Assembly (NCBI GenBank): GCA_050176585.1
Contig: JBFXHX010000011.1
Span: 26,688 to 90,687, forward strand
Length of the DNA stretch: 64,000 nucleotides
Source of the DNA: Candidatus Binatia bacterium
GTDB lineage: Bacteria; Desulfobacterota; Binatia; HRBIN30; CADEER01
Direction of reading: 5' to 3'
The translations under genes and the position numbers were made by a program. Below the pieces are notes generated by a model. The model ran no database searches, was not told the origin of the DNA, and saw only the letters and a list, made by a program, of their open reading frames with translations. Of this stretch, positions 24,832 to 64,000 are shown piece after piece (position 1 is the stretch's first letter; the number at the start of each line of letters is the position of its first letter).

Positions 24832-25893
24832 ATGACCCTCGACGCCAATCGCGAGCGCGCGCTCGATCTCGCCGTGAGCCAGATTGAGAAGCAGTTCGGC
24901 AAAGGCGCGATCATGAAGCTCGGCGACAATGCCGCCGCACCCGACATCCCGGTGATCTCCACCGGCTCGCTCGGTCTCGACATCGCGCTGGGCGTCGGCG
25001 GCCTGCCGCGCGGCCGCGTGATGGAGATCTACGGACCCGAGTCCTCGGGGAAGACGACGCTCGCGCTGCAGGCGATCGCCTGCGCGCAGCGCGACGGCGG
25101 CGTGTGCGCCTTCGTGGACGCCGAGCACGCGCTCGATGTGACCTACGCGCGCAAGCTGGGAGTGCGCACCGAGGATTTGCTGATCGCACAGCCGGACAAC
25201 GGCGAGCAGGCGCTGGAGATCGCGGAGACGCTCGTGCGCAGCGGCGCGATCGACGTGCTGGTCGTCGACTCGGTGGCCGCGCTGGTGCCGCGCGCCGAGA
25301 TCGAGGGCGAAATGGGCGAGCCGCAGATGGGTCTACAGGCCCGTCTGATGTCGCAGGCCCTGCGCAAGCTCACCGGGACCATCTCGCGCTCGCAGACGAT
25401 CATGATCTTCATCAACCAGATCCGCATGAAGATCGGCGTGATGTTCGGCAACCCGGAGACGACGACCGGCGGCAATGCCCTGAAGTTCTACGCCTCGGTG
25501 CGGCTCGACATCCGCCGCGTGGGGTCGATCAAGCAGGGCGAGGCCGTCGTGGGCAGCCGCACGCGCGTGCGCGTGGTGAAGAATAAAGTGGCGCCCCCCT
25601 TCAAAGAGGCAGAATTCGATATCCTGTACGGTGTAGGCATCTCACGTGAGGGCGAGCTGATCGACCTTGGCACGGATCGTGGACTCATCGAAAAAAGTGG
25701 TGCGTGGTATTCGTATGCTGGCGAGCGCATCGGTCAGGGGCGCGAGAATGCCAAGGAGTTCCTGCACGAGCATCCGGAGCTGGCGGAGCAGGTCGACCGG
25801 CAGCTGCGCGCCCACTTCGGCATCGGCGGCGCTCCCGCGGGGGAGCCGGCACCGGCGCCCGAGGTGAAGAAGGCGGGAAAAGCGGCGTCGTAG
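24832..25893 (+). CDS. recA: Recombinase RecA
   Basis: Walker [13 protein letters not shown]; the L1/L2 loops and the whole sequence are canonical RecA. SD AGGAGA upstream. Confidence 0.98.
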
Positions 25894-25942: not shown

Positions 25943-27097
25943 ATGGAGCTGAACGAAATCCTGGCCGAGGCGGTGCGCAATGAGGCGTCGGACGTCCTCC
26001 TGAAGGCGGGCGTGCCGCCGGCGTTCCGCGTCCGCGCGGATTTTCTGCCCCTCGAGGGGGCCGCCGCGCTCGACGGCGCGGCGGTCGAGCACATCGTCGA
26101 CGGCGTGCTGGACGATCAGCACCGCCAGCGGCTCGCGCGCGATCTCCAAGTCGATCTGGCGTACGCCCACCCGACGCTCGGCCGCTTCCGCGTGAACGTC
26201 TTCCGCCAGCGCGGTTTTCTCAGCCTGGTCATCCGCGTCATCCCGACCCGGATCCGCAGTGTGGCCGAGCTCAACCTGCCGCCGGTCGTCGAGCAGCTGG
26301 CCACCGAACGGCGCGGGCTCATCCTCGTCACCGGCACCACCGGCAGCGGAAAGAGCACGACGCTGGCGGCGATCGTCGACTACATCAACCGCACGCGCCA
26401 ATCGCACGTGCTGACGATCGAAGACCCGATCGAGTACGAGCACCACGACCGGTTGAGCTTCGTCAACCAACGCGAGATCGGCTCCGACGCCGTCGACTTT
26501 CCCTCCGCATTGAAATCCGCGTTGCGGCAGAACCCCGACGTCATCCTGGTCGGCGAGATGCGCGATCTCGAGACCATCGAGACGGCCATCCTCGCGGCGG
26601 AAACCGGCCACCTCGTCATGAGCACGCTGCACACGCTGGACGCCCAAGAGACGATCACTCGCATCATCTCCGCGTTTCCTGATCATCAGCGCGATCAGGC
26701 GCGGCTGATCCTGGCGAGCGTCATTCGGGGCGTGGTGAGCCAGCGCCTCATCCCGCGCGCCGACGGCCTCGGCATGGTGCCCGCGGTCGAGGTGCTGGTG
26801 GCCAGCGCGCGCGTGAAGGAGTACATCGCCGACAAGACCAAGACCCGCGACCTCCGCGACGTCATCGCCCAGGGGCACACGTCCTACGGCATGCAGACGT
26901 TCGACCAGTCCCTGATGGCCCTCTTTCGCAGCGAGCTCATCACCTACGACCAGGCGCTCGCGCACTGCTCCAACCCGAGCGATTTCGAGCTGAAGGTGCG
27001 CGGCATCGCCTCGGCCAGCGACGCGCGCTGGGACAACTTCGAGAAGCCGGCCGCCCACGCCGACGACCACATCGGCCTCGACATCGAACGCTTCTGA
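25943..27097 (+). CDS. pilT: Type IV pilus retraction ATPase PilT
   Basis: Walker A GTTGSGKSTT, Asp box, and the PilT-type C-terminus AHxxDFELK-like. 384 aa. Confidence 0.9.
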   Translation: MELNEILAEAVRNEASDVLLKAGVPPAFRVRADFLPLEGAAALDGAAVEHIVDGVLDDQHRQRLARDLQVDLAYAHPTLGRFRVNVFRQRGFLSLVIRVIPTRIRSVAELNLPPVVEQLATERRGLILVTGTTGSGKSTTLAAIVDYINRTRQSHVLTIEDPIEYEHHDRLSFVNQREIGSDAVDFPSALKSALRQNPDVILVGEMRDLETIETAILAAETGHLVMSTLHTLDAQETITRIISAFPDHQRDQARLILASVIRGVVSQRLIPRADGLGMVPAVEVLVASARVKEYIADKTKTRDLRDVIAQGHTSYGMQTFDQSLMALFRSELITYDQALAHCSNPSDFELKVRGIASASDARWDNFEKPAAHADDHIGLDIERF

Positions 27098-28731: not shown

Positions 28732-31362
28732 ATGATGAGCGGCGCAGACATTCGGAGCAGCTTTCTCGAATTCTTTCGGGCCCGCGGGCACGAAGTCGTG
28801 CGGAGCTCCTCGCTGGTGCCCACCAACGACCCGACGCTGCTCTTCACCAACGCCGGCATGGTGCAGTTTAAGAACGTGTTCCTCGGCCAGGAGACGCGCG
28901 CCAACGCGCGCGCCGCGAGCGCGCAGAAGTGCCTCCGGCTCAGCGGGAAGCACAACGATCTCGAAGAGGTGGGGCGCGACGGCTACCACCACACGTTCTT
29001 CGAGATGCTCGGCAACTGGTCGTTCGGCGAATACTACAAGCGCGAGGCGATCCGCTGGGCCTGGGAGCTGCTCACCGAGGTCTGGAAACTGCCCAAGGCG
29101 CGGCTGTGGGCGACCGTGTATCGCACCGACGACGACGCGGATGCGCTCTGGCGCAGCGAAACCGACATCAATCCCGAGCAGATCCTCCGCTTCGATGAGA
29201 AGGACAACTTCTGGGAGATGGGCGAAACCGGGCCTTGCGGACCGTGCTCGGAGATCCACATCGATCGCGGTCCGGACGCCTGCGACAAGCGCGCCGTGCC
29301 CGGTCACGTCTGCGCCGTGAACGCCGGCTGTGCGCGGTATCTCGAGCTGTGGAACCTGGTGTTCATCCAGTACGATCGCCAGCCCGACGGGTCCTTGGTT
29401 GACCTGCGGGCCAAGCACGTCGACACGGGCATGGGCCTCGAGCGCGTTGCCGCCGTGCTGCAGGGCGTGCAGTCGAACTACGACACCGATCTCTTCCGCC
29501 GGCTGATCGCCTTCGTCGAGCAGCACTCGGGGCGCCGCTACGGCGCCGATGAAGACACGGATCTGGCGATGCGCGTGATCGCCGACCACAGCCGCGCGCT
29601 CAATTTCATGATCGCGGACGGCGTCGTGCCGAGCAACGACGGCCGCGGCTACGTGCTGCGCCGCATTCTCCGCCGCGCGGCGCGCCACGCGCGCGTGCTC
29701 GGCTTCGACCGCCCGTTCCTGTGGAAGATGTCCGAGCCGGTGCTCGCGGTCATGGGCGAGGCGTATCCCGAGCTCGCCGAGCGGCGCGGCTACATCGAAG
29801 GGGTCGTGCGCGGCGAAGAGGAGCGCTTCGCGGAAACGCTCGACCGCGGTCTCGCGCTGCTCGCGCAGGAGCGGGAAGAGCTGCAGCGCAGCGGACAGGA
29901 TACGCTGGCCGGCGACATCGCCTTCAAGCTGTACGATACATACGGATTTCCCGTCGACATGACGGCGGACATCCTGCGCGACCATGGATTGGGCCTCGAC
30001 CAGGAGGGCTTCGCGGCTGCGATGGCCGCCCAGCGCCGGCGCGCGCGCGAAGCGCGCAAAGCGGCGGGTGACGGCATCATCGTCGGCAGCCGCGAGTCGT
30101 CGCGCTTCACCGGCGACGGCATCTACGAGATCGAAGCGCCGATCACGGCGCTGCTGATCGACGGCGAAGAGCGCGACGAGGTGCGCAGCGGCGACACGGT
30201 GCACGTCGTCACGGCCGAAACCCCCTTCTACGGCGAATCCGGCGGTCAAGTGGGAGATCGCGGCGTGATCGAAACCGACGACGGTGCGCTGATCGAGGTG
30301 ACGGACACCACCAGGCCGCGCTCGGACCTGACCGTCCACATTGGCACGGTCGTGCGCGGCGCGTTGCGCACGGGGCAGACGGCGCGGCTCACCGTCGACC
30401 GCGAGCGCCGCGAGGCCACGCGCCTCAACCACTCCGTCACCCACATCCTCCACGCGGTGCTGCGCCGCACGCTCGGCTCACACGTGCGCCAGGCCGGCTC
30501 CCTGGTCACGCCGGAGCGGATGCGCTTCGATTTCAGCCAGCCGGCTGCCATCGACGATAACACGCTCACCCGCATCGAGGACGAGGTCAACGCGCACATA
30601 CGCGAGAACGCCGAGGTGTACACCGAGGAGATGGCGTACACGGACGCCCTCAAGGCCGGTGCACTGGCTTTCTTTGGCGACAAGTACGGCGATCGCGTCC
30701 GCGTGGTCCGCATGGGCGAGTTCTCCACCGAGCTCTGCGGCGGCACGCATGTCCGTCGCACGGGCGACATCGGCCTGTTCAAGCTGCGCGGCGAGAGCGG
30801 CGTTGCCGCCGGTACGCGGCGCATCGAGGCGATCACCGGCGTCGGCGCGCTCGAGGCGGTGCGCGCCTCGGAGCAGTCGCTGCGCCGGCTCGGACACCTG
30901 CTGCGCGGCAGCGAGGACGCGCTCGCCGAGCGGGTCGAGCGCCTGCTCGCGCAGCAACGGCAGCTGGAGCGGCAACTCCAACAGCTGCAGCGCCAGATGG
31001 CGGGAAACCAGAGCGGCGATCTCGTGGCGCGCGCGCAGACCGTGAACGGCAAGCGCGTGATCGCCAGCGCGGTGGACGACGCCGACCCCAAGCGGCTGCT
31101 CGAGCTCGCCGACCAGCTTCGCGAGCGGCTCGGGTCGGGCGTGGTCGTGCTGGCGAGCGAACAGGACGGCCAGGTGCGGCTCCTCGCCGCGGTCACCAAG
31201 GACCTCGCCGGTCAGGTGCATGCCGGCAAGCTGATCGGCCAGATCGCGCCCATCGTCGGCGGCAAAGGCGGGGGCCGCCCGGAGCTGGCGCAGGCGGGCG
31301 GCTCTGATCCGTCCAAGATCGGCGACGCGCTGGCGCGCGCCGTGGAGCTAGTGGGGCAGTGA
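28732..31362 (+). CDS. alaS: Alanine--tRNA ligase
   Basis: [37 protein letters not shown], the editing domain HxxxH motifs and the C-terminal DHHA1 are canonical AlaS. Confidence 0.97.
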
Positions 31363-45536: not shown

Positions 45537-45841
45537 CCGCCGACCAGCACCGCGCGCGGTACTCCGGCTCTCCGGGTGCGGATGCGCCGGCAAGCTCCTC
45601 TTCCGCCGCGGCCCAGGTCGATGATCTCGAACTCATCCCCCGCGCGGTGCGCGACAAGCTCGACCGCACCGGCATTAAGCTCCGCCTGCGCGAGTGGTCG
45701 CTGCTAGCCCGCGAAGAGCGGCAGCGGCTGGTCGATGCGCCGTGCCAGTCGGCAGCCGAGGTCGCCAGCTATGCGACCCTCCTCGACCGCATGGTCCGCG
45801 CGCGCAGCGGCAGGCTGCCCGACCGCTTGCCTCCGCGGTGA
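45533..45841 (+). CDS. Small protein resembling the nitrate-reductase-associated protein family (assignment tentative)
   Basis: LELIPRAVRDKLDRTGIKLRLREWSLLAREERQRL resembles, from memory, the conserved core of that small-protein family. Not verified. Confidence 0.4.
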   Translation: MTADQHRARYSGSPGADAPASSSSAAAQVDDLELIPRAVRDKLDRTGIKLRLREWSLLAREERQRLVDAPCQSAAEVASYATLLDRMVRARSGRLPDRLPPR

Positions 45842-45884
45842 AATCCCGCGGCCTTCCGGCCTCTGCAGTGGCTCGGCAACCAGC

Positions 45885-47687
45885 GTGAAATCACTCGTCC
45901 GCATCGCCAACGCCGGCGGGTACTGGGGCGACGATCCGGAGGCGCTCCGCCGGCAGGTGACCGGCGGACCGCTCGATTATGTGACCATGGATTTCCTGGC
46001 GGAAATCACCATGGTGATCCTGCAACGCCAGCGCGCTCGGGATCCCAAAGCGGGCTTCGCGCGCGATTTCATCGAGCACCTGCAGCTCGCGCTGCCGCCG
46101 ATCGCAGAGAGCGGTGTGACCGTGATCGTCAATGCCGGCGGCATCAATCCGACCGGCTGTGCCGAAGCGGTCGAGGCGCTCTGTGCGCGCGCAGGCGTCG
46201 ACCTGCCGCTCGGCATCGTGGACGGCGATGACCTGCTGCCGGAGCTCGCAGCGCTCGAGGCTGCCGGCGTGCAGCTGGACCATATGGACGGGAGCCGCCG
46301 TTTCGCGGAGATCCGCGGGCGGGTCGTCGCGGCCAACGCGTATCTGAGCGCCGCACCCGTCGTCGCGGCCCTGCGCGGCGGCGCCCGCATCGTCATCACC
46401 GGGCGCACCACAGACGCCGCGCTCATCCTCGCGCCACTCGTGCATGAGTTCGGCTGGGCGTGGGACGACTGGGATCGGCTCGCGGCGGGCATCGCCGCCG
46501 GCCACATCCTCGAGTGCGGGGCGCAGGCCACCGGAGGCAACTTCACGGATTGGCAGCGCATCCCGTCCATGCTCGACGTCGGCTACCCCATCGCCGAAGC
46601 ACGCGCCGACGGGACGTTCGTCGTCACCAAGCATCCACACACCGGCGGCGTCGTGAGCTTGCGCACCGTCACCGAGCAGTTGCTCTACGAGATCGGCGAC
46701 CCGCGCGCATACGCAACCCCTGACGTGGTCGCAGACTTCACGAGCCTGCAGCTCTCGCTCGACGGGCCCGACCGCGTGCGCGTCTCCGGCGCGCGCGGCC
46801 GGCCCGCCCCGCAGAACCTGAAGGTATCGGTCGTGTACCAGGCCGGCTATCGCGCCGTCGGCACCGCGCTGATCTCGGGTCCGAACGCCGTCGCCAAAGG
46901 CGAGCGACTCGCGGAGATGCTCTGGCACCGCCTCGGGACCGACTTCACCGATCGCCGTGTCGACTTCATCGGCCACAACGCGTGCTGGGGCGGTGCCGTG
47001 GCCCCCGCGCACGAGCCAAACGAGATCATCTTCCGCGCCGGTGTGGCCGACGCCGATCGCGCCAAGATAAAGCGGTTCGCCGACCACTTGCTCGGCTTCG
47101 CGCTGCAAGGGCCGCCCGGTCTCGGCCTCTTCGGCGGCCGCCCGGACGTTCAGGAAGCTTTCGGCTTCTGGCCGGCGCTGGTGCCGCGCGACCGCGTGAC
47201 CGCGCGCGTCGCCCTTCGCCATGGCGGCGAGCAGGCGGTCCAGGAGGTGCCCCTGACGCTACCCGCGGCGCCGCCGACCCGCGCGCCGGACGCGGCGCGT
47301 GAAGTCGCCATCGAGGTGGCGGACGGCGAGCGCGCGGCGCGCACCAGCCGCGTACGCCTGCAGACGATCGCGTACGCGCGCTCCGGCGACAAGGGTGACC
47401 ACGCCAACATCGGCGTCGCCGCGCGCTCTCCGCAGGCGTACGGTTTCCTCCGCGAAGCGCTCACGGCGAAGCGCGTGCGCGCCTTCTACCGCGATCTCGT
47501 CCGCGGCCCGATCGAGCGCTACGAACTCCCCAACCTGTTGGCGTTCAACTTCCTCATGCAGCACGCGCTCGGCGGCGGCGGTACGCTCTCGTTGCGCGTC
47601 GACCACCAGGGCAAGACGCTCGCGCAAGGCCTGCTGGCGCTGGAGCTGGACGTGCCCGAGGACGTGCTCGCCTCAGTGGGCGCGTGA
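45885..47687 (+). CDS. AtuA-like acyclic-terpene-utilisation family protein (DUF1446 + DUF4387)
   Basis: GTG start. VRIANAGGYWGDD N-terminus; the C-terminal YARSGDKGDHANIGV block. About 600 aa, as for AtuA homologues. Confidence 0.7.
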   Translation: MKSLVRIANAGGYWGDDPEALRRQVTGGPLDYVTMDFLAEITMVILQRQRARDPKAGFARDFIEHLQLALPPIAESGVTVIVNAGGINPTGCAEAVEALCARAGVDLPLGIVDGDDLLPELAALEAAGVQLDHMDGSRRFAEIRGRVVAANAYLSAAPVVAALRGGARIVITGRTTDAALILAPLVHEFGWAWDDWDRLAAGIAAGHILECGAQATGGNFTDWQRIPSMLDVGYPIAEARADGTFVVTKHPHTGGVVSLRTVTEQLLYEIGDPRAYATPDVVADFTSLQLSLDGPDRVRVSGARGRPAPQNLKVSVVYQAGYRAVGTALISGPNAVAKGERLAEMLWHRLGTDFTDRRVDFIGHNACWGGAVAPAHEPNEIIFRAGVADADRAKIKRFADHLLGFALQGPPGLGLFGGRPDVQEAFGFWPALVPRDRVTARVALRHGGEQAVQEVPLTLPAAPPTRAPDAAREVAIEVADGERAARTSRVRLQTIAYARSGDKGDHANIGVAARSPQAYGFLREALTAKRVRAFYRDLVRGPIERYELPNLLAFNFLMQHALGGGGTLSLRVDHQGKTLAQGLLALELDVPEDVLASVGA

Positions 47688-51909: not shown

Positions 51910-52482
51910 GTGTATCGGGGTGAACAGGGCGCAGCGACCCGCGCGCGCGTCAAGCGCGGCGCGCGCACATTGGTCGTCATGGCATTGCTGGCGGGCTGCT
52001 CCGAGCAGATCCCCATCCACGTCCAACCCAACCCGCTGGCGAGCTTCGCCGATTATCACACCTACGCGTGGATAACCGCGCCGCCGACGCCCGCGCCCGG
52101 TGCACCGGAGACCGGCAGGGAGGTGTTCGGCTGGCGGGTCGAGAATGCGGTGGACACGGCGTTGAAAACGCGCGGGTACCTGCTCGACGAGCGCCAGCCC
52201 GACCTGCTGGTCCGCACGCTGACGACGATCGAGGAGCGCTATGCGGACACGATCCAGGGCTACCAGCACTACCGCAACGCCGGCGGTGAGCAGCCGCTGT
52301 TCAGCGCCTTTTCCCTCGGTTACGAGGAAGCCACGGTGATCGTCGAACTGTATGACGCGCAAACGCACGCGCTTCTCTGGCGCGGCAGCACCGCGATCGC
52401 GATGGATGCGAAGCGGCGCGCCGACCGCGCCGCGGCCGGCGTGGCCGAGATGTTCAAGTCGTTCCCGGCCCGCCAGGGATGA
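51910..52482 (+). CDS. Lipoprotein, DUF4136-like
   Basis: Lipobox LLAGC (VVMALLAGCSEQ). The start is uncertain: GTG 51910, with in-frame alternatives up to 51784. Confidence 0.55.
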   Translation: MYRGEQGAATRARVKRGARTLVVMALLAGCSEQIPIHVQPNPLASFADYHTYAWITAPPTPAPGAPETGREVFGWRVENAVDTALKTRGYLLDERQPDLLVRTLTTIEERYADTIQGYQHYRNAGGEQPLFSAFSLGYEEATVIVELYDAQTHALLWRGSTAIAMDAKRRADRAAAGVAEMFKSFPARQG

Positions 52483-52717
52483 AGAGCCGGGTCGGGCAGG
52501 CTGTTCGCTGTTCCGCTGTTACGGAAGTACACGAGCTCGGGCGGTCGCTGCGAATCTGAGCCGGCCACTGCACATGACTCGACATCCCTTGCCAGCGTGC
52601 CGCAGGGGCATTCTGCCGCACAAACGTGTCGGCCAGGTCCTCAGAGAGTTGTGTCAGCGATATCCGCGGGCCCCCAAACAGTAAGCGCCCAAGCGCGTAA
52701 CAGCCCGTGATCCTGCG

Positions 52718-55552
52718 TTACGCCGTCCCGGCGTGAATCGCCGCCGGCGCGCCCAGCGCCGCAGCGAGCAAGGTGCGGGTGTACTCCGCCTGCGGCGCGG
52801 TGAAGATCTGCTCAGCAGGGCCCTGCTCGACCACCACGCCGTCCTTCAGCACCACGATGCGATGGCTCATCGCGCGCACGACGCGCAAGTCATGGCTGAT
52901 GAACAGATAGGCGAGCCGGTGACGGGCCTGCAGCGTGCGCAGCAGGTCGACGATCTGGGCCTGCACGGACACGTCGAGCGCCGAGGTCGGCTCGTCCAGG
53001 ATGAGGAGCGCCGGCTTGAGCACCAGCGCGCGGGCGATGGCGATCCGCTGGCGTTGGCCGCCGCTGAACTCGTGCGGATAGCGATGGCGCGTCTCGGGAT
53101 CGAGGTCGACTTCGCGCAACGCCGCGGCGATGAGCGCCTCGCGCTCGGCGTGGTCCGCGCCGATGCCGTGCGCGCGCAGTCCCTCGCCGACGATCTGGCC
53201 GACCGACAGGCGCGGGTTGAGTGAACCGTACGGATCCTGAAAGACGATCTGCATCTCGCGCCGTAGCGGCCGGAGCGCACCGCCGCGCAGCTCGCCGAGC
53301 TCTCGGCCGTCGAACAGCAGCCGGCCCTGACTGTCGACCAAGCGCAGCACCGCCAGCGCCAGCGTCGTCTTCCCCGAGCCGCTTTCGCCGACGATGCCCA
53401 CCGTCTCGCCGGCCCGCACCTCCACAGTGACGCCGTCGAGCGCGCGCACGTGGTCGACCGTGCGGCGCAGCACGCCCTGCTTGATCGGATACCAGACGCG
53501 CAGCGCGTCGCAGCTCAGCACCACCGGCGCGGCCGGCGGTACCGGCGCGGGGACGCCGGAGGGCTGCGCGGCGAGCAGGCGCCGCGTGTACGGGTGGTGC
53601 GGCGCGCCGAACACAGCCGCCACTGCACCCTGCTCGACGATTCCGCCCGCCTGCATCACGCACACGCGGTCGGCGATAGCGCGCACGATCGAGAGATCGT
53701 GCGTAATGAACAACATGGCCATCCCGAGGCGCTGCTGGAGCTCTTTCAGCAGCGCGAGCAGCTGCGCCTGGATGGTGACGTCGACCGCGGTGGTCGGCTC
53801 ATCGGCGATCAAGATGTCCGGCTCGTTCGCCAGCGCCATGGCGATCATCACCCGCTGGCGCTGTCCGCCGGACAGCTCGTGCGGGAATGCGCCGAGCCGG
53901 CGCTCTGGATCGGGGAGCCCCACGAGGCGCAGCAGCTCGATCGTGCGCGCGCGAGCGGCCGCCGCGCCGAGGTCGCCATGCACGGCCAGGCTCTCGCTGA
54001 TCTGGCGCTCGATCGTGTGCAGCGGGTTCAGCGAAGTCATCGGCTCCTGGAAGATCATCGCGATGCGATCGCCGCGCACGCGGCGGAGCGTGTCCCCCGA
54101 CGCGCCGACCAGCTCGACGCCCTGAAACCGGATGCTCCCGCTCGGGTGGCGCGCGTGCGGGTAGGGCAGCAACTGCAGAATGGAGAGCGCGGTCACCGAT
54201 TTTCCGGAGCCGCTCTCGCCGACCAGGGCCAGCGTCTCACCGGGTCGCAGGTCGAACGACGCGCCGACCACGGCGTCGACCGCGCCTGCGCCCTCGCCGA
54301 AGCGGACGCGCAGGTCGCGCACGCTCAACAGCGTATCATCCGCCGGCTCGGCGGCGGGCGCGCCGGCGGCGGGTGCGGGCTGGCGGCGCGGCATCCGCCG
54401 CGCATCGCCGGGGCCCGCCGGTACCGCGGCCAACGTCCTCCGCGGGTCCAGCGCATCCCGCGCGGCTTCGCCGATGAACACCAGCAGCGTCAGCATGGCG
54501 GCGATGACCGTGAAGCCCGTCAGGCCGAGCCACGGCGCTTGCAGGTTGTTTTTGCCCTGCTGGAGCAGCTCGCCGAGCGATGGCGATCCCGGCGGCAGTC
54601 CGAAGCCGAGGAAATCCAGCGCGGTAAGGGTCACCACCGCGCCGCTGGCAATGAACGGCAGGAAGGTGAGCGACGAGGTCATGGCGTTCGGCAGCAGGTG
54701 CCGGAACATGATGCCCGCGTCGCCGACGCCGAGGGCGCGCGCCGCCCGCACGTAATCGAAGTTCCGCCCGCGCAGAAACTCCGCGCGCACGACGCCGACC
54801 AGGGTCATCCAGCTGAACAGCAGCAACAACCCGAGCAGCCACCAGAAACTCGGGGTGACCACGCTCGCCAGGATGATGAGCAGGAACAGGGTCGGCATAC
54901 CCGACCAGATCTCGATGAAGCGCTGCAGCAAGAGGTCGACCCACCCGCCGAAGTAGCCCTGCACCGCGCCGGCGGCGATGCCGATGATCGAGCTCAACAC
55001 GGTCAGCGTGAGGCCGAACAGCACGGACAAGCGGTACCCGTAGATCAATCGCGCCAGCACATCGCGCGCCTGGTCGTCGGTGCCGAGCCAGTTCTGCCAG
55101 GTCGGCGGCGACGGCGCCGGTCCGGGGAGGTCGCGCACGATGGTGTCGTAGCTGTACGGAATGGGCGGCCAGACCATCCATCCGTCCTCGCGGATAAGCC
55201 GCTGCACCTCCGGATCGCGGTAGTCCGTCGCCGTTTCGAGAAAGCCCCCGAACGTGGTCTCCGGGTACGCGACGAACACGGGCGTATAGAATCGCCCGGC
55301 GTAGCGGACGAGCAGCGGCTTGTCGTTGGCGATCAGCTCGGCGCCGAGCGCCACCAGGAGCAAAGCGACGAAGATCCAGAGCGACCACCACCCGCGGCGG
55401 TTGGCGCGGAAGTTCGCCATCCGGCGCCGGTTGAGTGGGCTCAGCGGGAGCGCGGAGCGGCCGGCTGGCGGAGAGGGTCGGCCCTCGGCGGGCAGTGCGT
55501 CCCGGCTGCCGGGCACCGGGGCCGGTTTGGCGTCGGCGAGGTGAGAGCTCAT
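52718..55552 (-). CDS. yejEF: Apparent in-frame fusion of a YejE-type ABC permease and a YejF-type double ATP-binding protein (944 aa)
   Basis: N-terminus [25 protein letters not shown]...[12 protein letters not shown] matches YejE. It is continuous, with no stop, with MPRRQPAP...[14 protein letters not shown]...[12 protein letters not shown], and a second Walker [17 protein letters not shown] overlap with the yejB stop. Confidence 0.7.
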
Positions 55553-56640
55553 CGGCGTTCGAAGTCGATGCGCGGATCGACGACCACGTACGTGAGGTCC
55601 TCGATCAGCTTCGTGATGAGGCCGATCAGGGTGAAGCAGTAGAGGGTGCCGAAGATCAACGGGTAGTCGCGCGACACGGTGGCCTGGAAGCCGAGCAGGC
55701 CGAGCCCGTCGATCGAAAAGATGATCTCGGTGAGCAGCGCGCTGGTGAACAGGATGCTGATCAACGCGTTCGGAAACCCGCTGATGATGATCAGCATCGC
55801 GTTGCGGAACACGTGGCGGTAGAGCACGCGCCGCTCGCTCAGCCCTTTGGCGCGCGCGGTGAGCACGTACTGCTGATTGATCTGGTCCAGAAACGAGTTC
55901 TTGGTCAGCAGGGTGAGGCTCGCGAAGCCGCCGATGACCATCGACAGCACCGGCAGCGTGAGGTGCCAGAAATAGTCGGTGAGCTTGTGCCAGAAGTCGA
56001 GCTCGCTCCAGTTGTCGGACACGAGCCCGCGCAGGGGGAACCACTGGAAGTAGCTGCCGCCGGCGAACAGCACGATCAACAGGATCGCGAACAGGAAGCT
56101 CGGAATGGCATTGCCGACGATGACGACGCCCGAGGTCCAGACGTCGAAGCGCGAGCCGTCGCGGACGGCCTTGGCCACGCCGAGCGGGATCGAGATCAGA
56201 TAGATGATGAGCGTAGTCCACAGGCCGAGCGACATCGACACCGGCAAGCGCTCGAGCACCAGGTCGATGACGGAGCGGCTGCGGAAGAAGCTCTCACCGA
56301 AGTCGAAGCGCAGATAGCGCTCCATCATCAAGAGGAAGCGCTCGTGCGCGGGCTTGTCGAACCCGAACTGGCGCTCGAGGTCCTTCACCAGCTCCGGGTC
56401 GAGCCCCTGAGCGCCGCGGTAGCGGCTGCTGCTGGCGCCGGTCGCCGGCGCCGCGCCGCCGCCTTCGCCGAGTCCCCCGGAGACGCGCGCGGTCGCGGAC
56501 ACCGCCGTTCCCTTCAGCTGCGCGAGTAGCTGCTCCACCGGTCCGCCGGGGGCGGCCTGGATGATGGCGAAGTTGAGCAGCATGATCCCGAACAGGGTTG
56601 GGACCATCAGCAGCAAGCGGCGCGTGATGTAGGCGAGCAT
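55549..56640 (-). CDS. yejB: ABC transporter permease, YejB-type
   Basis: [35 protein letters not shown] is a DppB/YejB N-terminus; 6 TM. Confidence 0.85.
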
Positions 56641-56745
56641 GGTGCGTTTAGTGCGACGCGGCGCAGGCGCCGAGCACGGCGCGCGCCTCGATGGCGAATT
56701 CCGCGCGGCGCGCGCCGGCGCGGTCCCGCGTGTGGCTCTGTTCTC

Positions 56746-58593
56746 TCACGTGCCCTTGCGGCGCGCCGCGAGCTGCGCGGCCTTGGTTGGATCCCACCAC
56801 CAGGTCTCGAGCTGCACGCCCTGTGCGGGGATCGTGCTCGGGCGGCCGAACTTGTTCCAGTAGGCGAGGCGGTCGTAGGCGATGTGCCAGTTCGGCACCA
56901 CGTAGAAGCCCCACTGCAGCGCGCGGTCGAGCGCCTGGGTGCGCGCCACCAAACTCGCGCGGTCCGGGGCGGCGATGACGCCGTCGACCAGCCCATCGAT
57001 TACCGGATCGGCGAGTCCCAGCACGTTCAGGCTGCCGGGCTGATTCGCGTAGGCGGAGGTCCAGAACGCCCGCTGCTCGTTGCCGGGCGACTGCGACTGC
57101 GGCCACACCTGCATGACGACGTCGAAGTCGAAGTTGTCGACGCGCTTGCGGTACTGGGCGGGATCGACCGTGCGCACGCGCGCGGTGATGCCGAGGCGCT
57201 CGAGGTTCTTGGCGAACGGCAGGGTGATGCGCTCGTACGCCGGATCGACGAGCAGGAACTCGAACTCGAACAGCTTGCCCTCCGCGTTAACGAGCTTCTT
57301 GCTCTTCGGGTCGACCGACCAGCCCGCGGCTTTCAGCAGCTCGACGGCTTTCCGCAGGTTGTCGCGCAGATTGCCCGAGCCGTCGGTCGCCGGCGGCTGG
57401 TACTCGGTGGTGAACACCTCGGACGGCAGGCGGTCGCGATAGGGCTCCAACGCCTGCAACTCGAGGCCGGCGGGAACTCCGTTCGCCGCCAACTCGGAGT
57501 TGTCGAAGTAGCTGCGCGTGCGCGTGTACTGGCCATAGAAGAGGGTCCGGTTCGCCCATTCGAAATCGAAAGCGTAACCCAGCGCCTGCCGCACGCGCCG
57601 GTCTTGGAACAGCGGCCGGCGCAAGTTGAAAGCGTAGCCTTGCATCCCAGCGGGGCGATCGTGCTTCGCCTCCTCCTTGCGGAGCCACCCCTGCTCGACG
57701 GCGGAGCCGTCGTACGCCGTAGCCCAGTCTTTCGAAGACGCCTCCAGCCGAAAATCATATGCCCCGGCCTTCAGCGCCTCCAGCGCGACCGTCATGTCGC
57801 GGTAGTAGTCGTAGCGGATCACGTCGAAGTTGTGCTGTCCGCGGTTCACCGGCAGGTCCTTGCCCCAGTAGTCAGGTACCCGCCGGTAGGTGTGCCAGCG
57901 GCCGGCCTCGAACTGGTCCAGCTTGTAGGGGCCGCTGCCCAGGGGAGGCTCCAGCGTGGTCGCCTCGAAGTCCTTGCCCTGCCAGTAGTGCTTGGGCAGC
58001 ACCGGCAGTTGCCCGAGGATCAGCGGGAGCTCGCGGTTCTCGCCCGGCTTGAAGGTGAACTTCACGGTCCGGTCGTCGAGCTTCTCGCCGCCGGCGACGT
58101 TGCCGTAATATGCGCGGTAATACGGTTGCCCCTTGGTGCGCAGCGTCTCGAAGGTCCACAGCACGTCGTCGGCGGTGACCGGTTTGCCGTCCTGCCAGCG
58201 CGCCTCCTTGCGCAGGGTGAACTTCACCCAGGAGCGATCGGCGGGCGTCTCGACCGTTTCGGCCAGCAGGCCGTACTCGCTGAACGGTTCGTCGGCTGAG
58301 GCGGTGAGGAGCGTATCGTAGATGCGCGTGATGCCGTCCGCCGGGTTGCCCTTGATGATGAAGGGGTTGAAGCTGTCGAAAGTCCCCAGCCCGTACAGGC
58401 GAAGCTCGCCGCCCTTGGGGGCGTCGGGATTGACGTAGTCGAAATGGGTGAAGCCGGGCCCGTACTTGAGATCGCCGTGCATGGCGATGCCGTGCCCCTT
58501 GGTCGTCCCGCTGTCGACTGCGAGCGCGGCAGAAGCGAGCGACGAGAGGAGAAAGAGCAGTCCGAGTCGGATCAGTCGTGGGCAGCAACGCAT
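56746..58593 (-). CDS. yejA: ABC transporter substrate-binding protein, family 5 (YejA-type)
   Basis: Signal peptide MRCCPRLIRLGLLFLLSSLASAALA, then a family-5 SBP of about 600 aa (microcin C / oligopeptide binding type). Confidence 0.85.
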   Translation of the reverse strand: MRCCPRLIRLGLLFLLSSLASAALAVDSGTTKGHGIAMHGDLKYGPGFTHFDYVNPDAPKGGELRLYGLGTFDSFNPFIIKGNPADGITRIYDTLLTASADEPFSEYGLLAETVETPADRSWVKFTLRKEARWQDGKPVTADDVLWTFETLRTKGQPYYRAYYGNVAGGEKLDDRTVKFTFKPGENRELPLILGQLPVLPKHYWQGKDFEATTLEPPLGSGPYKLDQFEAGRWHTYRRVPDYWGKDLPVNRGQHNFDVIRYDYYRDMTVALEALKAGAYDFRLEASSKDWATAYDGSAVEQGWLRKEEAKHDRPAGMQGYAFNLRRPLFQDRRVRQALGYAFDFEWANRTLFYGQYTRTRSYFDNSELAANGVPAGLELQALEPYRDRLPSEVFTTEYQPPATDGSGNLRDNLRKAVELLKAAGWSVDPKSKKLVNAEGKLFEFEFLLVDPAYERITLPFAKNLERLGITARVRTVDPAQYRKRVDNFDFDVVMQVWPQSQSPGNEQRAFWTSAYANQPGSLNVLGLADPVIDGLVDGVIAAPDRASLVARTQALDRALQWGFYVVPNWHIAYDRLAYWNKFGRPSTIPAQGVQLETWWWDPTKAAQLAARRKGT

Positions 58594-58868
58594 AGCCGGT
58601 AAGTCTACCCGATTCGCCCGCAGTTTGCGCGCACCCCAGCCCCGCGCCGATTGACGGTCCGGTGCCGGGATTGCGGCGCGGCGGGACTGGCTGGACAAAA
58701 TCGGCGCAGCGCTCATAGTTCCATCAGAAACAACTTCCCCATCGCATTACTCCGTAGACCCGTGGCGCTCGGTCGCGCCGTGCGCCTGGCGCTCCTGCGC
58801 GCAGCGGGCGCACGGCGCGCGCGCGAATCCGGCGTTCGGCCAGCGCTGTGCCAAGAGGAGGGCTGAGA

Positions 58869-59774
58869 ATGCCTGCCCAAGAGCAGTTCCTGGTGCTTCC
58901 GGAACAGGCCGGAGAGCTGCCGGATTTCCTCGACGGTTCGATCTACTTCGTGGGGACCGCGACCGTCATCATCCGCTACGGGGGGTTTACGATCCTCACC
59001 GATCCCAACTTCCTGCACGCGGGCGATCACGTGCATCTCGGCTATGGGCTCACGGCTAAACGCCTCACCAACCCCGCCTTGAGCATCGAAGACCTCCCGC
59101 CGATCGATTTCTGCGTGCTCTCCCACTACCACGGCGATCACTTCGACCAGCTCGTGGAAGAAAAGCTGCAGAAGGATTTGCCGATCATCACCACCGAGCA
59201 CGCGCGCGCCGAGCTCGCCAGCAAGGGCTTTACGGCGGCGCGCGCGCTGGACACCTGGGACGCGGTGACGGTCCAGAAAGGGGGCGCGGACGTGCGCGTC
59301 ACCGCGATGCCGGGCAAGCACGGACCGGCGATCGCCGCATTGCTGCTGCCGCCGGTCATGGGGAGCATGCTCGAGTTCCGCCCCGGCGGGGAGACCACCG
59401 CGCTCCGGTTGTACATCACCGGCGACACCCTGGTGCATGACGACCTCCACCAGATCCCACGGCGGTATCCGCACATCGACCTCGCGCTCTTCCACCTGGG
59501 CGGTACGCGGATCGTCGGCATCTTGCTGACCATGGACGCCGAGCAGGGCGTGGAAGCGATTCGGATCATCAATCCGCGCGCGGTGATCCCCATCCACTAC
59601 AACGATTACGAGGTGTTCCGCTCGCCGCTCGAAGACTTCAAACGCGCCGTCGAAGCGGCTGGGCTCGCCGGTCGGGTCCGCTATCTGGCACATGGGGAGC
59701 TGTACGCATTTCGGATGCCCGAAAGCCGCATGGGCGCGTCCGCGCCTGACTCACCGGTGAGTATCCCGGCCTGA
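58869..59774 (+). CDS. MBL-fold metal-dependent hydrolase
   Basis: HYHGDHFD motif. SD AGGAGGG upstream of the ATG. Confidence 0.75.
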   Translation: MPAQEQFLVLPEQAGELPDFLDGSIYFVGTATVIIRYGGFTILTDPNFLHAGDHVHLGYGLTAKRLTNPALSIEDLPPIDFCVLSHYHGDHFDQLVEEKLQKDLPIITTEHARAELASKGFTAARALDTWDAVTVQKGGADVRVTAMPGKHGPAIAALLLPPVMGSMLEFRPGGETTALRLYITGDTLVHDDLHQIPRRYPHIDLALFHLGGTRIVGILLTMDAEQGVEAIRIINPRAVIPIHYNDYEVFRSPLEDFKRAVEAAGLAGRVRYLAHGELYAFRMPESRMGASAPDSPVSIPA

Positions 59775-59926
59775 CCAGACCGGCGGCGCGCTTCCTGTGT
59801 AGCCGCGGTACGTATGGCCGCACGGAGCCCCGCCCGGGCGGGTGATGGGTTGCTGCGCCCCGGCACAGGTCCGGCGGCTACACTCGATCGACTCAATCGC
59901 AGCGCACGCGCTCGCGGCGGGTAGGT

Positions 59927-61843
59927 TTGACAGCCCGCGCCGGCGCCGATAGCGGCACGGCGGTGCAGGACGTCGGCGCGATTCTCGCCACGGTACGGCG
60001 CTACTGGGGCTTCGACCAGTTGCGCCCCCTCCAGCAGGCGGCAATCGCCGCCGGGCTCGAGCGGCGCGATGCCCTGGTAGTGCTGCCGACCGGCGGCGGC
60101 AAATCGCTCTGTTACCAGGTGCCGCCTGCCGTGGCGGGCCGCACCGACATCGTGATCTCGCCGCTCATCGCGTTGATGAAGGACCAGGTCGACGGATTGC
60201 GCGCGAACGGCTACGCGGCGGCGGCGCTCCACAGCGGCATGCGCTTCGAAGAGGTGCGCGAAGTCGAGCAGGGCCTCGCCGACGATCGCTTCCGTCTGCT
60301 CTTCGTCGCCCCGGAGCGGCTCCTCGCGCCGCGCTTCCTCGCCTGGCTCGAACGCGCCGGGGTGCGCGATTTCGCCGTCGACGAAGCGCACTGCATCAGC
60401 CATTGGGGGCATGATTTCCGTCCCGAGTATCGGCAGCTCGCCGAGCTGAAAGGCCGCCTCACGGCGGCCAGCGTGCGCGCGTTCACAGCGACCGCCACCG
60501 AGCGCGTGCGCGCCGACATCGCGGCCCAGCTGCGGCTCGCCGATCCGCTGGTGCTGGTAGGCACGTTCGACCGCCCGAACCTCACGTACCGGGTGGTCCC
60601 GCGCACCGACCTGCAGCGCCAGGTGCTGCAGGTCATGCGCCGCCATGCGGACGAAGCGGCGATCGTCTACTGCCTCACTCGACGCGACACCGAAACGCTG
60701 GCCGCGCAGCTCGCCGCGCAAGGCCTGCGGGCAGGCGCCTACCACGCCGGCATGGACCCCGAGGCGCGGCGGCGGACGCAGGAGGCGTTTGCCGAGGAAC
60801 ACCTAGACATCGTCGTGGCGACCGTCGCGTTCGGCATGGGCATCGATCGCAGCGATGTGCGCTGCGTCATCCATACGGCGCTGCCCAAATCGCTCGAGCA
60901 CTATCAGCAGGAGACGGGCCGCGCCGGCCGCGATGGGCTGGAGGCGGAGTGCACGCTGCTGTACTCAAGCGGCGACGTCGTCCGCCTCGAACGCTTGCTG
61001 GAGCGCAGCGCGGGCGAGGCGGCCGCGCGGCGGGCTGAGCAGCCCGCCGGCGAACCCGAGCCGGGGAACGGCACAGCGGCCGAGGAGGCGCTCGAAGCCG
61101 CGCGCGGCTTGTTGCGCCACATGCAGCGCTTTGCCTCCGGTCTCGCCTGCCGGCACAAGACCCTTTCCGAGTACTTTGGGCAGCCGTACGAGCGCGCGAA
61201 CTGCAGCGCCTGCGACGTGTGCCTCGAAGAAGTCGAGGGCGTGAGCGACGCGACCACCGCTGCGCAGAAGATTCTCTCGGCCGTGGCCCGCGCCGAGGGC
61301 TTCGGCGTGACGCACATCGTCGACATCCTGGCCGGCGCGGACACCGAGCGGGTGCGCGCGCGCCGGCACGACCAGCTCAGCACCTACGGCCTCATGCGCG
61401 GGCTACAGCGCGCCGGTGTCACGGCGATGGTCTACCAGCTCCTGGATCAGCATCTGCTCGAGCGCACCGCTGGCGACCGCCCGGTGCTGCGCCTGAATGC
61501 GGCTTCGTGGGAGGTGCTGCGGGGTCGGCGGACCGTGCAGCTGGTGCAGCCGAAGATCAAGTCTCCCGCCGCGCAACTGCGCGCTGGCGGCGAGTCGTGG
61601 GAGGGTGTGGACCGCGAGCTCTTCGACTCCCTGCGCGGTTTGCGCCGGGAGCTCGCCGCCGCGCGCGGCGTACCGCCGTACATCGTGTTCAGCGATGCCA
61701 CGCTGCGCGATCTCGTACGCCGCCGGCCGCTCTCGCTCGACGCCTTCGCGCAAGCGTACGGGGTCGGCGAGCGCAAGCTACACGATCTCGGGCCACTCTT
61801 CGTGGATCACATCCGGCGCTGGATCGGAGCAGCGAGCGGTTAG
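59927..61843 (+). CDS. recQ: ATP-dependent DNA helicase RecQ (with RQC and HRDC domains)
   Basis: Helicase motifs LVVLPTGGGKSLCYQ (I), DEAHCISHWGHDFRPEY (II) and the QETGRAGRDG arginine finger; zinc-binding Cys cluster; C-terminal HRDC. Confidence 0.92.
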   Translation: MTARAGADSGTAVQDVGAILATVRRYWGFDQLRPLQQAAIAAGLERRDALVVLPTGGGKSLCYQVPPAVAGRTDIVISPLIALMKDQVDGLRANGYAAAALHSGMRFEEVREVEQGLADDRFRLLFVAPERLLAPRFLAWLERAGVRDFAVDEAHCISHWGHDFRPEYRQLAELKGRLTAASVRAFTATATERVRADIAAQLRLADPLVLVGTFDRPNLTYRVVPRTDLQRQVLQVMRRHADEAAIVYCLTRRDTETLAAQLAAQGLRAGAYHAGMDPEARRRTQEAFAEEHLDIVVATVAFGMGIDRSDVRCVIHTALPKSLEHYQQETGRAGRDGLEAECTLLYSSGDVVRLERLLERSAGEAAARRAEQPAGEPEPGNGTAAEEALEAARGLLRHMQRFASGLACRHKTLSEYFGQPYERANCSACDVCLEEVEGVSDATTAAQKILSAVARAEGFGVTHIVDILAGADTERVRARRHDQLSTYGLMRGLQRAGVTAMVYQLLDQHLLERTAGDRPVLRLNAASWEVLRGRRTVQLVQPKIKSPAAQLRAGGESWEGVDRELFDSLRGLRRELAAARGVPPYIVFSDATLRDLVRRRPLSLDAFAQAYGVGERKLHDLGPLFVDHIRRWIGAASG

Positions 61844-62960: not shown

Positions 62961-64000
62961 CTATCCGCTCAGTCCCTCGTAACGCCTGCGCTTGCGCCAC
63001 AGGGTGGAGGCGTCGATGCCGAGGATGCGCGCGGCGTCGTCCAGGGTGGGCTGGCGCGCGATGACGCGCAGGATGTGCTCGCGCTCGATCGCCTCGACCG
63101 TGTAGTCACCGCCCAGCTCGGGCGCAACGGCGGACCGCGCGGCGATGCGCTCGGGCAGTGCGGCCGGCTCGATGACCTGACCCGGCCAGAGAATCAATGC
63201 GCGCTCGATCGCGTTGCGCAGCTCGCGGACGTTCCCCGGCCACGGGTAGTCGCGCAGCGCCGCCGCCGCGTCGGGCGACAGGGTTTGGGTTGGCCGTTTG
63301 GCGGCGCGGGCGAAAAAGGCGAGAAAGCCTTCCGCCAGCGGCAAGATGTCCTCGCGCCGCTCGCGCAGGGGGGGAACGCGCAACTCGAGGACGTTCAGGC
63401 GGTACAACAGGTCTTCCCGAAAGCGGCCGGCGCGAACGTCCGCTTCCAGCGCGCGGTTGGTGGCGGCGAGGATGCGCACGTCGGCGCTGCGTGTGACCGT
63501 GTCGCCGACGCGCTCGAATTGCCGGTCCTGCAAGAAGCGCAGGAGCTTGGCCTGCAAGCCAGGCGAGATTTCGCCAATCTCGTCGAGGAAGAGCGTACCG
63601 CCGTCGGCCGCCCCGACGCGCCCGATCTGGTCGCGCACGGCGCCGGTGAACGCCCCGCGCACGTGGCCGAACAGCTCAGAGGCGAGCAGCTCCTCGGATA
63701 GGGTTGGACAGTTCACGACCACGAACGGCCGGTCCCGCCGCGGACTGGCTTCATGGACGCGCCGCGCCAGAACGCCCTTGCCGGTGCCGTTTTCGCCGCG
63801 GAGCAGCACGGTGGCATCGCTCGCCGCCACGCGTGGCACCACGTCCAGTACCGCGCGCATCGCGGGTGCCGCGGTATCGAACCTGACCTCCGGCGCGGCG
63901 CCGCGCAGCTGCTGCTCGACGTCCGCGAGCCGCCGCGCCAGCTGCCGCCGGGTGGCGAGCTGTTCCACCACATGGCGCACCTGGACCGGCGTGAACGGCT
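62961..64000 (-). CDS. Sigma-54-dependent transcriptional activator (AAA+ plus Fis-type HTH); partial, the N-terminus lies beyond the window end
   Basis: Walker [15 protein letters not shown] motif (HVRGAFTGA), C-terminal [21 protein letters not shown]. The reading frame stays open to position 64000. Confidence 0.85.

Follow-up and report, generated by a model that had tools for sequence, protein, structure and literature searches.

We found that yejE and yejF form one continuous gene in DNA of a Candidatus Binatia bacterium, and comparison with related sequences confirmed that the fusion is natural and not an assembly error. Very probably the gene is the last of three, yejA, yejB and yejEF, in an operon that encodes a type I ABC importer of the Opp/Dpp/Yej family (peptide/opine/nickel) dependent on a binding protein, with yejE and yejF fused in the lineage.

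The operon lies on the minus strand of the window, the whole 64,000-nucleotide stretch of DNA that was analysed, as do all of the genes and domains located below. The yejA gene (56746..58593) encodes a periplasmic family-5 (cluster C) peptide-binding protein of 615 aa and is followed by a 105-nt intergenic spacer (56641..56745, from the ORF coordinates) and by yejB (55549..56640), which encodes the first permease, an OppB/DppB-like protein of 363 aa. The TGA stop of yejB and the ATG start of the fused gene share bases in an ATGA overlap (55549..55552), an arrangement typical of translational coupling. The fused gene itself (52718..55552) comprises 944 codons and a stop at 52720..52718. Its minus-strand frame runs without interruption from 52718 to 56221, according to the ORF list and a start-codon scan, and the ATG at 55552 is the biologically sensible start, giving 944 aa. 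A signal scan found no promoter- or terminator-like site in the 105-nt spacer between yejA and yejB; across 52300..59000 it returned a single promoter-like site and a single terminator-like site on the plus strand, no more than shuffled sequence would be expected to give (means of 0.6 and 3.0). When the full 64,000 nucleotides were scanned for Rfam families and tRNAs, there were no matches.

The N-terminus of YejA resembles a signal peptide (MRCCPRLIRLGLLFLLSSLASAALA), and the 615 aa are counted from the Met that opens this segment; the open frame continues upstream to 58716. The protein matched Pfam SBP_bac_5 with 243 bits, and YejA chains in the PDB aligned to nearly its full length (aa 33-612 of 615), with E-values of approximately 1e-155 for 7z6f, 8fsr and 7atr and 2e-168 for 7z8e. 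YejB matched NCBIfam profile NF011712 from end to end (549 bits, cutoff 445, positions 1-364/364) as well as Pfam BPD_transp_1. These matches indicate that the binding protein is of the YejA type and that the YejB permease of a YejABEF importer is present alongside it.

The fused protein begins with a YejE permease domain (54434..55444, aa 37-373) that is OppC-like, has a six-helix BPD_transp_1 core and matched YejE profile NF011596 with 489 bits (NCBIfam; cutoff 439, positions 4-340/341). The profile and PDB matches thus agree with the initial annotation, which had recognised yejA, yejB and a YejE-like permease, and the YejE-like peptides quoted there were found in the translation. Downstream of an interdomain linker (54338..54433, aa 374-405), a low-complexity segment of 32 residues outside both profiles, the YejF profile matched aa 406-930 with 745 bits (NCBIfam; positions 3-527/529). 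Because this score falls below the equivalog cutoff of 834, we refer to this part as YejF-like only, not as a certified equivalog of E. coli YejF. Pfam identified OppC_N, BPD_transp_1 (aa 191-372) and two ABC_tran domains in the same protein.

Cassette 1 of the YejF-like part (53558..54337, aa 406-665) is OppD/DppD-like and aligns with E. coli DppD (8z1v_C) over aa 408-665, and cassette 2 (52754..53524, aa 677-933) is OppF/DppF-like and aligns with E. coli OppF (8z21_D) over aa 676-932. Each retains an intact Walker A, signature, Walker B and H-loop: GESGSGKS (aa 445), LSGGQ (560), ILIADEP (580) and ITHD (616) in the first, and GESGSGKT (722), FSGGQ (829), LLILDEP (849) and ISHD (885) in the second. 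The YejF-like part with two Walker A motifs described initially therefore carries a full motif set in both cassettes. The initial annotation had also read YejE as running without a stop into YejF over 944 aa, with the junction at 54350-54450; the frame is indeed a single ORF from the ATG at 55552, and this interval coincides with the linker. In the permease, the cytoplasmic coupling (EAA) loop contains residues that are invariant among 62 aligned fused proteins (R256 A257 E258 ... A270 A271 R272 ... L274 G275). Together with BPD_transp_1 and the gene for a binding protein in the operon, this loop indicates a membrane core with the type I ABC importer fold.

The comparison of orthologous loci proposed in the initial annotation showed that the best 120 homologue clusters, which we took as the fused family, are all fused, giving at least 120 related proteins with the fusion. 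They share 69-81% identity with the protein of the locus at 90-96% coverage, are 869-988 aa long and have identical permease and ATPase content (120/120). One cluster has 90 members, several fused homologues are located on contigs of 3.6-4.8 Mb, and one fused protein (P0002) is identical in two separate assemblies (ENA, JGI). The gene order yejA-yejB-yejEF also recurs in three related loci (L081-L083). IMG labels members of this family 'duplicated ATPase subunit YejF / permease subunit YejE', and in a fused cluster of 69% identity one partial sequence bears the name 'Alphaproteobacteria bacterium'. For the RecA encoded in the window, the top hits with a name come from MAGs labelled 'Deltaproteobacteria bacterium' (90%) and 'Candidatus Binatia bacterium' (88%, 85%).

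Linkers in the family are highly variable, with 105 distinct sequences among the 120 homologues and lengths, measured between conserved flanking motifs, of 27-93 aa (median 36); their composition is 30% Ala, 13% Pro and 10% Gly. Despite this variation in length and sequence they are in frame in 120/120 homologues, and the linker ends at the locus resemble those of its nearest relatives (TL.A..P..P ... PADD). Unfused YejE proteins end a median of 3 residues past the DPRx motif, and the linker consists of approximately 30 residues that are absent from unfused genes. GC3 is 0.87-0.90 through the junction and 0.88 in the linker itself. In an AF2 model of the single YejEF chain, which is silent on which cassette touches YejE, aa 376-403 form coil with pLDDT <50 and most 10-residue blocks of the cassettes have pLDDT 80-96; the linker of the locus is thus predicted to be disordered. 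We suggest that this Ala/Pro/Gly-rich segment of 32 residues would act as a flexible tether and not as a functional domain.

The initial annotation had offered either a genuine TMD-NBD-NBD fusion or a frameshift in the assembly, and the fused homologues with their in-frame linkers uphold the former. Under the frameshift reading the true genome would hold separate yejE and yejF, the yejE stop being masked by an indel in the GC-rich junction. It is true that the first and third codon positions of the junction are 90% G+C or higher, a sequence type prone to indel errors, and that among the matches listed yejE and yejF are separate, either abutting or overlapping, in all 59 reference-genome loci of other taxa with both genes (fusion in 0/59). 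These reference-genome loci are more distant (51-75% identity), and no fused relatives of 69-81% identity are among them. A tblastn search against plasmids likewise gave only two-piece, unfused matches, so that all plasmid-borne relatives are separate. Against an error, the closest homologues come from many independent assemblies (ENA, JGI, NCBI), every linker is in frame whatever its length, both linker ends resemble those of the nearest relatives, and one indel between two abutting genes would not add some 30 extra residues. We therefore regard a frameshift as extremely improbable and effectively refuted. An equally slight probability attaches to the fused gene being a decaying or non-functional remnant, a pseudogene-like read-through: nothing specific favours it beyond the YejF score under the equivalog cutoff, whereas hundreds of columns are invariant across the 62 aligned fused proteins, including all catalytic motifs of both cassettes together with the permease cytoplasmic-loop residues, GC3 is of coding type throughout, and the operon partners are conserved. 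On this conservation a pseudogene was rejected.

A third alternative, improbable although less so than these two, is that one translated chain acts as separate subunits, through cleavage of the linker by a protease or through an internal start, in or close to the linker, that gives free YejF as well. The linker is disordered and exposed in the AF2 model, and there is an in-frame ATG within it at aa 387 (position 54394). However, a Met occurs anywhere in the linker in only 27/120 family members and within its last 20 residues in only 10/120, and the sequence upstream of the ATG at 54394 (GGCGATGCGCGGCGG) has no purine run resembling a Shine-Dalgarno site. Nor does any conserved cleavage motif stand out across the family, given that its linker sequences are not conserved. 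Taken together, the fused state of the closest 120 homologues, their variable linkers in frame, the long contigs, the duplicate assembly and the steady GC3 argue that the fusion is genuine, and on these comparisons it holds independently of this one assembly.

In the gene tree the fused family, with the protein of the locus included, was monophyletic in 60/60 neighbour-joining bootstraps and adjoined unfused alphaproteobacterial yejE/yejF pairs, a placement that hints at horizontal acquisition of the gene from Alphaproteobacteria. Sequence databases contain other fusions of the YejE-YejF type (P0268-P0270, P0273), and in two further permease and double-ATPase fusions (P0279, P0283) the permease part best matches Opp1C/Opp4C/GsiD-type models. 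These six proteins of approximately 780-1080 aa have the same order as the locus, BPD_transp_1 followed by two ABC_tran domains, but are only 40-51% identical to its protein and grouped with its family in 0/60 bootstraps. Because they fall outside that family in the tree, the simplest reading is that they are independent events, and the architecture of a permease joined to a double ATPase would then have arisen more than once. Fusion-directed literature searches and the listed YejABEF titles and abstracts yielded no description of a fused YejEF; where 'fused' occurs in these hits, it denotes tags or the joined cassette pair of YejF. A general review mentions prokaryotic ABC transporter fusions in passing only (PMC3971661).

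The known systems most similar to the locus are the YejABEF transporters of E. coli, Salmonella, Brucella and Sinorhizobium, which have the same four modules in the same order. Among the matches listed, unfused proteobacterial orthologues are approximately 55-75% identical to the locus in YejE and 52-72% in YejF. YejABEF hosts are proteobacterial pathogens and symbionts, whereas the locus belongs to an uncultured high-GC lineage. The four separate genes and three translocator chains of YejABEF are here replaced by three genes and two chains with a disordered linker of 32 residues, while the module content is unaffected.

No Yej translocator chain was present among the PDB matches listed, whether by sequence or by fold, and the best matches were OppD and DppD of M. 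tuberculosis (E-values 1e-134 and 1e-122). The closest solved structures are accordingly M. tuberculosis OppABCD (Rv1280c-1283c; PDB 8j5q-8j5t) and DppABCD (PDB 8wd9-8wdb), with Foldseek TM-scores, normalised to the target, of 0.72-0.88. M. tuberculosis OppD (612 aa) and DppD (548 aa) carry both cassettes in one chain, as the locus does, but both of their permeases are separate chains, whereas at the locus the ATPase chain includes the C-type permease as well. DppD and DppF carry [4Fe-4S] domains with four Cys, and MtbOppD is mentioned likewise (PMC12136057). Only two Cys are present in the 944 aa of the fused protein (positions 631 and 681), so it cannot carry such domains, and Pfam found only a fragment of oligo_HPY. 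The class of Opp/Dpp ATPases with C-terminal [4Fe-4S] domains was therefore rejected for this protein.

Fusions of a membrane domain to a cassette are standard in exporters, and MsbA, Sav1866 and P-glycoprotein resemble the locus in having the membrane domain and one or more cassettes on one polypeptide. An exporter-type transporter was nevertheless rejected, as the membrane domain is BPD_transp_1, which is unrelated to the exporter fold with its long intracellular helices; ABCB1 was matched by Foldseek only through the cassettes, with an rmsd of >20 Å. Unlike the fused TMD-NBD exporters, the system encoded here appears to be a binding-protein-dependent importer.

With yejE and yejF joined, the translocator would consist of two polypeptides, YejB and YejE-linker-NBD1-NBD2, and not three. 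By analogy with its relatives it is most likely a YejA-dependent peptide importer. In the periplasm, YejA would capture a peptide-like substrate and dock on the YejB/YejE membrane pair, and the tandem cassettes would bind and hydrolyse ATP at the two canonical sites that they form, thereby driving alternating access and import. Family knowledge suggests a substrate class of oligopeptides and of peptide antibiotics, microcin C among them, and possibly of muropeptides. Known YejABEF importers handle microcin C, phazolicin and antimicrobial-peptide-related substrates. Unfused YejABEF is linked to the uptake of microcin C-type peptides and to antimicrobial-peptide resistance (PMC10924461, PMC4994006), and these roles rest on genetic studies of E. 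coli, Salmonella, Brucella and Sinorhizobium (PMC10924461, PMC4994006, PMC10128002). At the locus, no microcin-related genes adjoining the yej operon were found, nor did its neighbouring genes give any pointer to the substrate.

The fusion also bears on how the cassettes may dock. In E. coli DppBCDF, DppB contacts DppD and DppC contacts DppF (PMC12136057), and sequence alignment to PDB chains maps NBD1 of the fused protein to DppD/OppD and NBD2 to DppF/OppF. If this pairing, which is taken from the single example of E. coli DppBCDF, applies to the locus, then YejE would be covalently tied to cassette 1 docking under YejB, with cassette 2 folding back to sit beneath YejE; we put the chances of such a cross-wired arrangement at roughly even. 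It would account for the minimum of 27 residues among all 120 linkers, whose sequence is otherwise free to vary, since the linker would tie YejE to the cassette under YejB. The cassette-side residues (Asn/Glu) in the DppB-DppD and DppC-DppF contacts seem, from residue numbers only, to be common to both paralogues, and because they are apparently shared they would not discriminate between docking arrangements. In exporters, the cassette tied to one membrane domain makes contact with the other (PMC3971661). A tie of this kind holds for the locus only if the homology-based pairing does, in which case a cross-wired YejEF may be the importer counterpart of domain-swapped exporter wiring.

In summary, an ORF for a permease-ATPase-ATPase protein of approximately 100 kDa in the yej operon of this lineage should not be annotated as a frameshift or a pseudogene. 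The fused YejEF leaves the understanding of what Yej transporters do unchanged. Looking forward, a natural two-chain translocator composed of YejB and YejEF could make a Yej-type transporter easier to express and to study by cryo-EM, and the strict minimum linker length provides a simple, testable handle on cassette docking. Should the cross-wiring prove true, it would, given that the fusion has at least two independent origins, suggest that some lineages were selected for an enforced 1:1:1 stoichiometry or for co-assembly of their peptide importers.

In the ORF list, three genes follow one another on the minus strand of the window at 52718-58716. The first, yejA (open frame 56746..58716 (-)), encodes a family-5 solute-binding protein (Pfam SBP_bac_5) and most plausibly starts at 58593, the first codon of a signal-peptide-like segment. 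YejA aligned over almost its whole length with solved E. coli YejA structures (E about 1e-155) and with chain 7z8e, deposited as 'ABC transporter substrate-binding protein' (E = 2e-168). After a 105-nt spacer comes yejB (55549..56640 (-)), whose OppB/DppB-like product of 363 aa scored 549 bits against NCBIfam YejB (cutoff 445). The yejB stop codon shares bases, within the ATGA at 55549..55552, with the ATG of a fused yejE-yejF gene (52718..55552 (-)), which runs uninterrupted in one frame of 944 codons from the ATG at 55552 to the stop at 52718..52720. A promoter/terminator scan of the operon region yielded no assignable promoter or terminator.

The fused protein gave a complete match to the NCBIfam YejE profile on aa 37-373 (positions 4-340 of 341; 489 bits, cutoff 439) and to the YejF profile on aa 406-930 (positions 3-527 of 529), the latter at 745 bits, short of the 834 set as equivalog cutoff. 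The intervening 32 residues (aa 374-405, window 54338..54433) matched neither profile. Because a single 944-codon frame spans the gene and these 32 residues lie unmatched between the profiles, the initial annotation was correct in describing one 944-aa ORF and in where it placed the junction. The YejE part has an OppC_N domain, while the YejF part holds two ATP-binding cassettes, each with canonical Walker A, signature, Walker B and H-loop; cassette 1 (aa 406-665) aligns with DppD/OppD and cassette 2 (aa 677-933) with DppF/OppF. Every module test except the YejF equivalog score assigns the locus to the Yej branch of peptide/opine/nickel ABC importers; gene organisation is the second point on which it departs.

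The nearest solved structures are M. tuberculosis OppD and DppD, which are fused double-cassette ATPases (E = 1e-134 and 1e-122; TM-score to target 0.72-0.88). In the M. tuberculosis Opp and Dpp systems, however, both permeases are separate chains, whereas here the YejE permease is joined to the ATPase. Fused-domain exporters have a membrane fold unrelated to that of the window protein, and a general review states that two, occasionally three, prokaryotic ABC subunits can be fused, with nothing further (PMC3971661). With cysteine at just two positions (aa 631 and aa 681), the fused protein lacks [4Fe-4S] domains of the type described for Dpp/Opp ATPases (PMC12136057); oligo_HPY is present as a fragment only. 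On this residue content its Yej-type cassettes cannot bind [4Fe-4S] clusters, in contrast to E. coli DppD/DppF and MtbOppD.

Two readings of the join had been offered in the initial annotation, a genuine TMD-NBD-NBD fusion or an assembly frameshift hiding the yejE stop codon. The former was borne out: the fusion is genuine and clade-wide, and the operon that holds it is in other respects an ordinary one for a YejABEF-type peptide importer. From a search of 5.8 billion proteins the best 120 clusters were examined (69-81% identity, 90-96% coverage), and all 120 were fused, 869-988 aa long, with BPD_transp_1 and ABC_tran and with the linker always in frame. One of the clusters comprises 90 members, among them some from contigs as long as 5.4 Mb. 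The comparison of orthologous loci suggested in the annotation found the order binding protein, YejB, fused gene at three related loci, as in the window. The searched collection lacks the exact window protein, but the family to which it belongs is well populated and annotated in databases.

Alignment of the 120 proteins showed that the YejE end (GEAVRDAFDPRK) and the YejF start (LLxVxDLxVRF) are nearly invariant and the stretch between them hypervariable. The linkers, 27-93 residues long (median 36), fall into 105 distinct sequences, indicating many independent insertions or deletions with the frame kept every time. Their residues are 30% Ala, 13% Pro and 10% Gly; Cys is absent and aromatic residues nearly so. 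The YejE of unfused relatives stops a median of 3 residues past the DPRx motif, and in most of these relatives the window-aligned part of yejF starts no more than about 35 nt from the yejE stop; the fused proteins thus carry ~30 extra residues. Hypervariable in-frame linkers of this size could not come from one indel between two abutting genes. Moreover, NCBI, ENA, JGI and Logan all contribute fused homologues, several of which sit on contigs of 3.6-4.8 Mb, and one identical protein (P0002, 920 aa) was assembled independently in ENA and JGI datasets. A frameshift is therefore effectively excluded. Both ends of the window linker resemble linkers of its nearest relatives, and third-position GC across the junction is 0.87-0.90.

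Linker cleavage, or internal initiation yielding free YejF, is unlikely and finds no support. There is an in-frame ATG within the linker at window 54394 (-) (aa 387, …RRMPRR…), but no Shine-Dalgarno-like sequence lies upstream of it, only 27 of the 120 relatives have a Met anywhere in the linker, and the linker has no conserved motif. Pseudogenisation is contradicted by invariant columns numbering in the hundreds, all catalytic motifs among them. AlphaFold2 (62-sequence alignment) modelled aa 376-403 as coil with pLDDT below 50 and the cassettes at 80-96 in most 10-residue blocks.

A reference-genome scan returned, among the matches listed, loci that were all more distant, in Alphaproteobacteria, Pseudomonas, Burkholderiales, Enterobacterales, Bacteroidota and others. 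At least 59 of these had both genes, with yejE and yejF separate ORFs in 59 of 59; the nearest among the matches listed was the unfused pair of Azospirillum melinis (YejE 75%, YejF 72% identity). Plasmid-borne relatives were all in two pieces. In a neighbour-joining tree of concatenated YejE+YejF (92 sequences, 858 columns, 60 bootstrap replicates), the window protein and sampled fused homologues formed one clade in 60/60 replicates, beside unfused alphaproteobacterial pairs. When 1.84 billion cluster representatives were searched exhaustively, four further YejE-YejF-type fused clusters emerged at 47-51% identity (P0268, P0269, P0270, P0273). All fused YejEF sequences grouped together in 0/60 replicates, suggesting that the join most probably arose at least twice.

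The same representative search found some twenty proteins joining an OppC-like permease region to a double ATPase; in the two scanned (P0279, P0283) the permease part was closest to Opp1C/Opp4C/GsiD-type models. Some Opp/Gsi-type fusions (P0272, P0279, P0285, P0286, P0313) run to 1010-1080 aa, keeping long OppD/OppF-type C-terminal domains in the ATPase halves or having extra N-terminal sequence. In P0272 and P0313 the permease match begins at about residues 200-230. Such long proteins may include further fused modules.

RecA (24832..25893 (+)) has its best named relatives in MAGs labelled 'Deltaproteobacteria bacterium' (90%) and 'Candidatus Binatia bacterium' (88%), and one partial member of a fused cluster is labelled 'Alphaproteobacteria bacterium'. 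The discrepancy between the RecA labels and the alphaproteobacterial neighbours of the fused clade could mean that the operon was acquired horizontally or that the MAG labels are unreliable. By eye, the translated N-termini of 25943..27097 (+) and 28732..31362 (+) appear PilT-like and AlaS-like, respectively.

The operon is flanked by genes for RecQ, a metallo-beta-lactamase-fold protein, a DUF4136 lipoprotein, SnoaL-like and MarC-family proteins and a GlpD-like FAD-dependent oxidoreductase (Pfam DAO + DAO_C); no adjoining gene narrows the transporter substrate. A divergent recQ adjoins the operon both in the window (58848..61843 (+)), with the metallo-beta-lactamase-fold gene between them, and at the P0002 locus (L083 566..2413), an arrangement that is local synteny with an uncultured relative whose fused homologue is 79% identical. 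Upstream of the region lies an AtuA-family (acyclic terpene utilisation) protein with a ferredoxin-like domain (45735..47687 (+)), and downstream a sigma-54-dependent activator with a Fis-type HTH (62961..63980 (-)) and, in the ORF as called, no obvious N-terminal receiver/sensor domain; neither seems connected with the operon. The whole 64-kb window, at about 68-70% G+C, holds no tRNA genes or Rfam families at gathering threshold.

Unfused Yej systems take up microcin C, phazolicin, corramycin and other peptides, muropeptides in an Agrobacterium system with a different binding protein, and also influence antimicrobial-peptide resistance (PMC10924461, PMC4994006, PMC10128002, bioRxiv 10.1101/2022.07.15.499691). 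The module content of the locus is that of YejABEF, and by family precedent YejA would pass a peptide-like substrate on to the membrane pair of YejB and YejE; ATP would be bound and hydrolysed at the two canonical sites of the tandem cassettes, and import would follow. Through the fusion the translocator chains fall from three to two. Being joined to a cytoplasmic ATPase, the OppC-type permease C-terminus should be cytoplasmic, which would make the fusion topologically unproblematic. Structures of E. coli DppBCDF show DppB in contact with DppD, and DppC with DppF (PMC12136057). If this pairing is conserved, the cassette joined to YejE (cassette 1, DppD/OppD-type) would be the one docking beneath YejB, and the tether would have to span to the other half of the complex; this would account for the lack of any linker shorter than 27 residues.

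Members of the family carry the IMG label 'duplicated ATPase subunit YejF / permease subunit YejE', so the fused architecture is already present and recognised in databases. No published description of a fused YejE-YejF was found in fusion-directed literature searches or among the titles and abstracts listed for YejABEF. The value of the finding lies mainly in annotation, with the fused protein also a possible target for structural biology.
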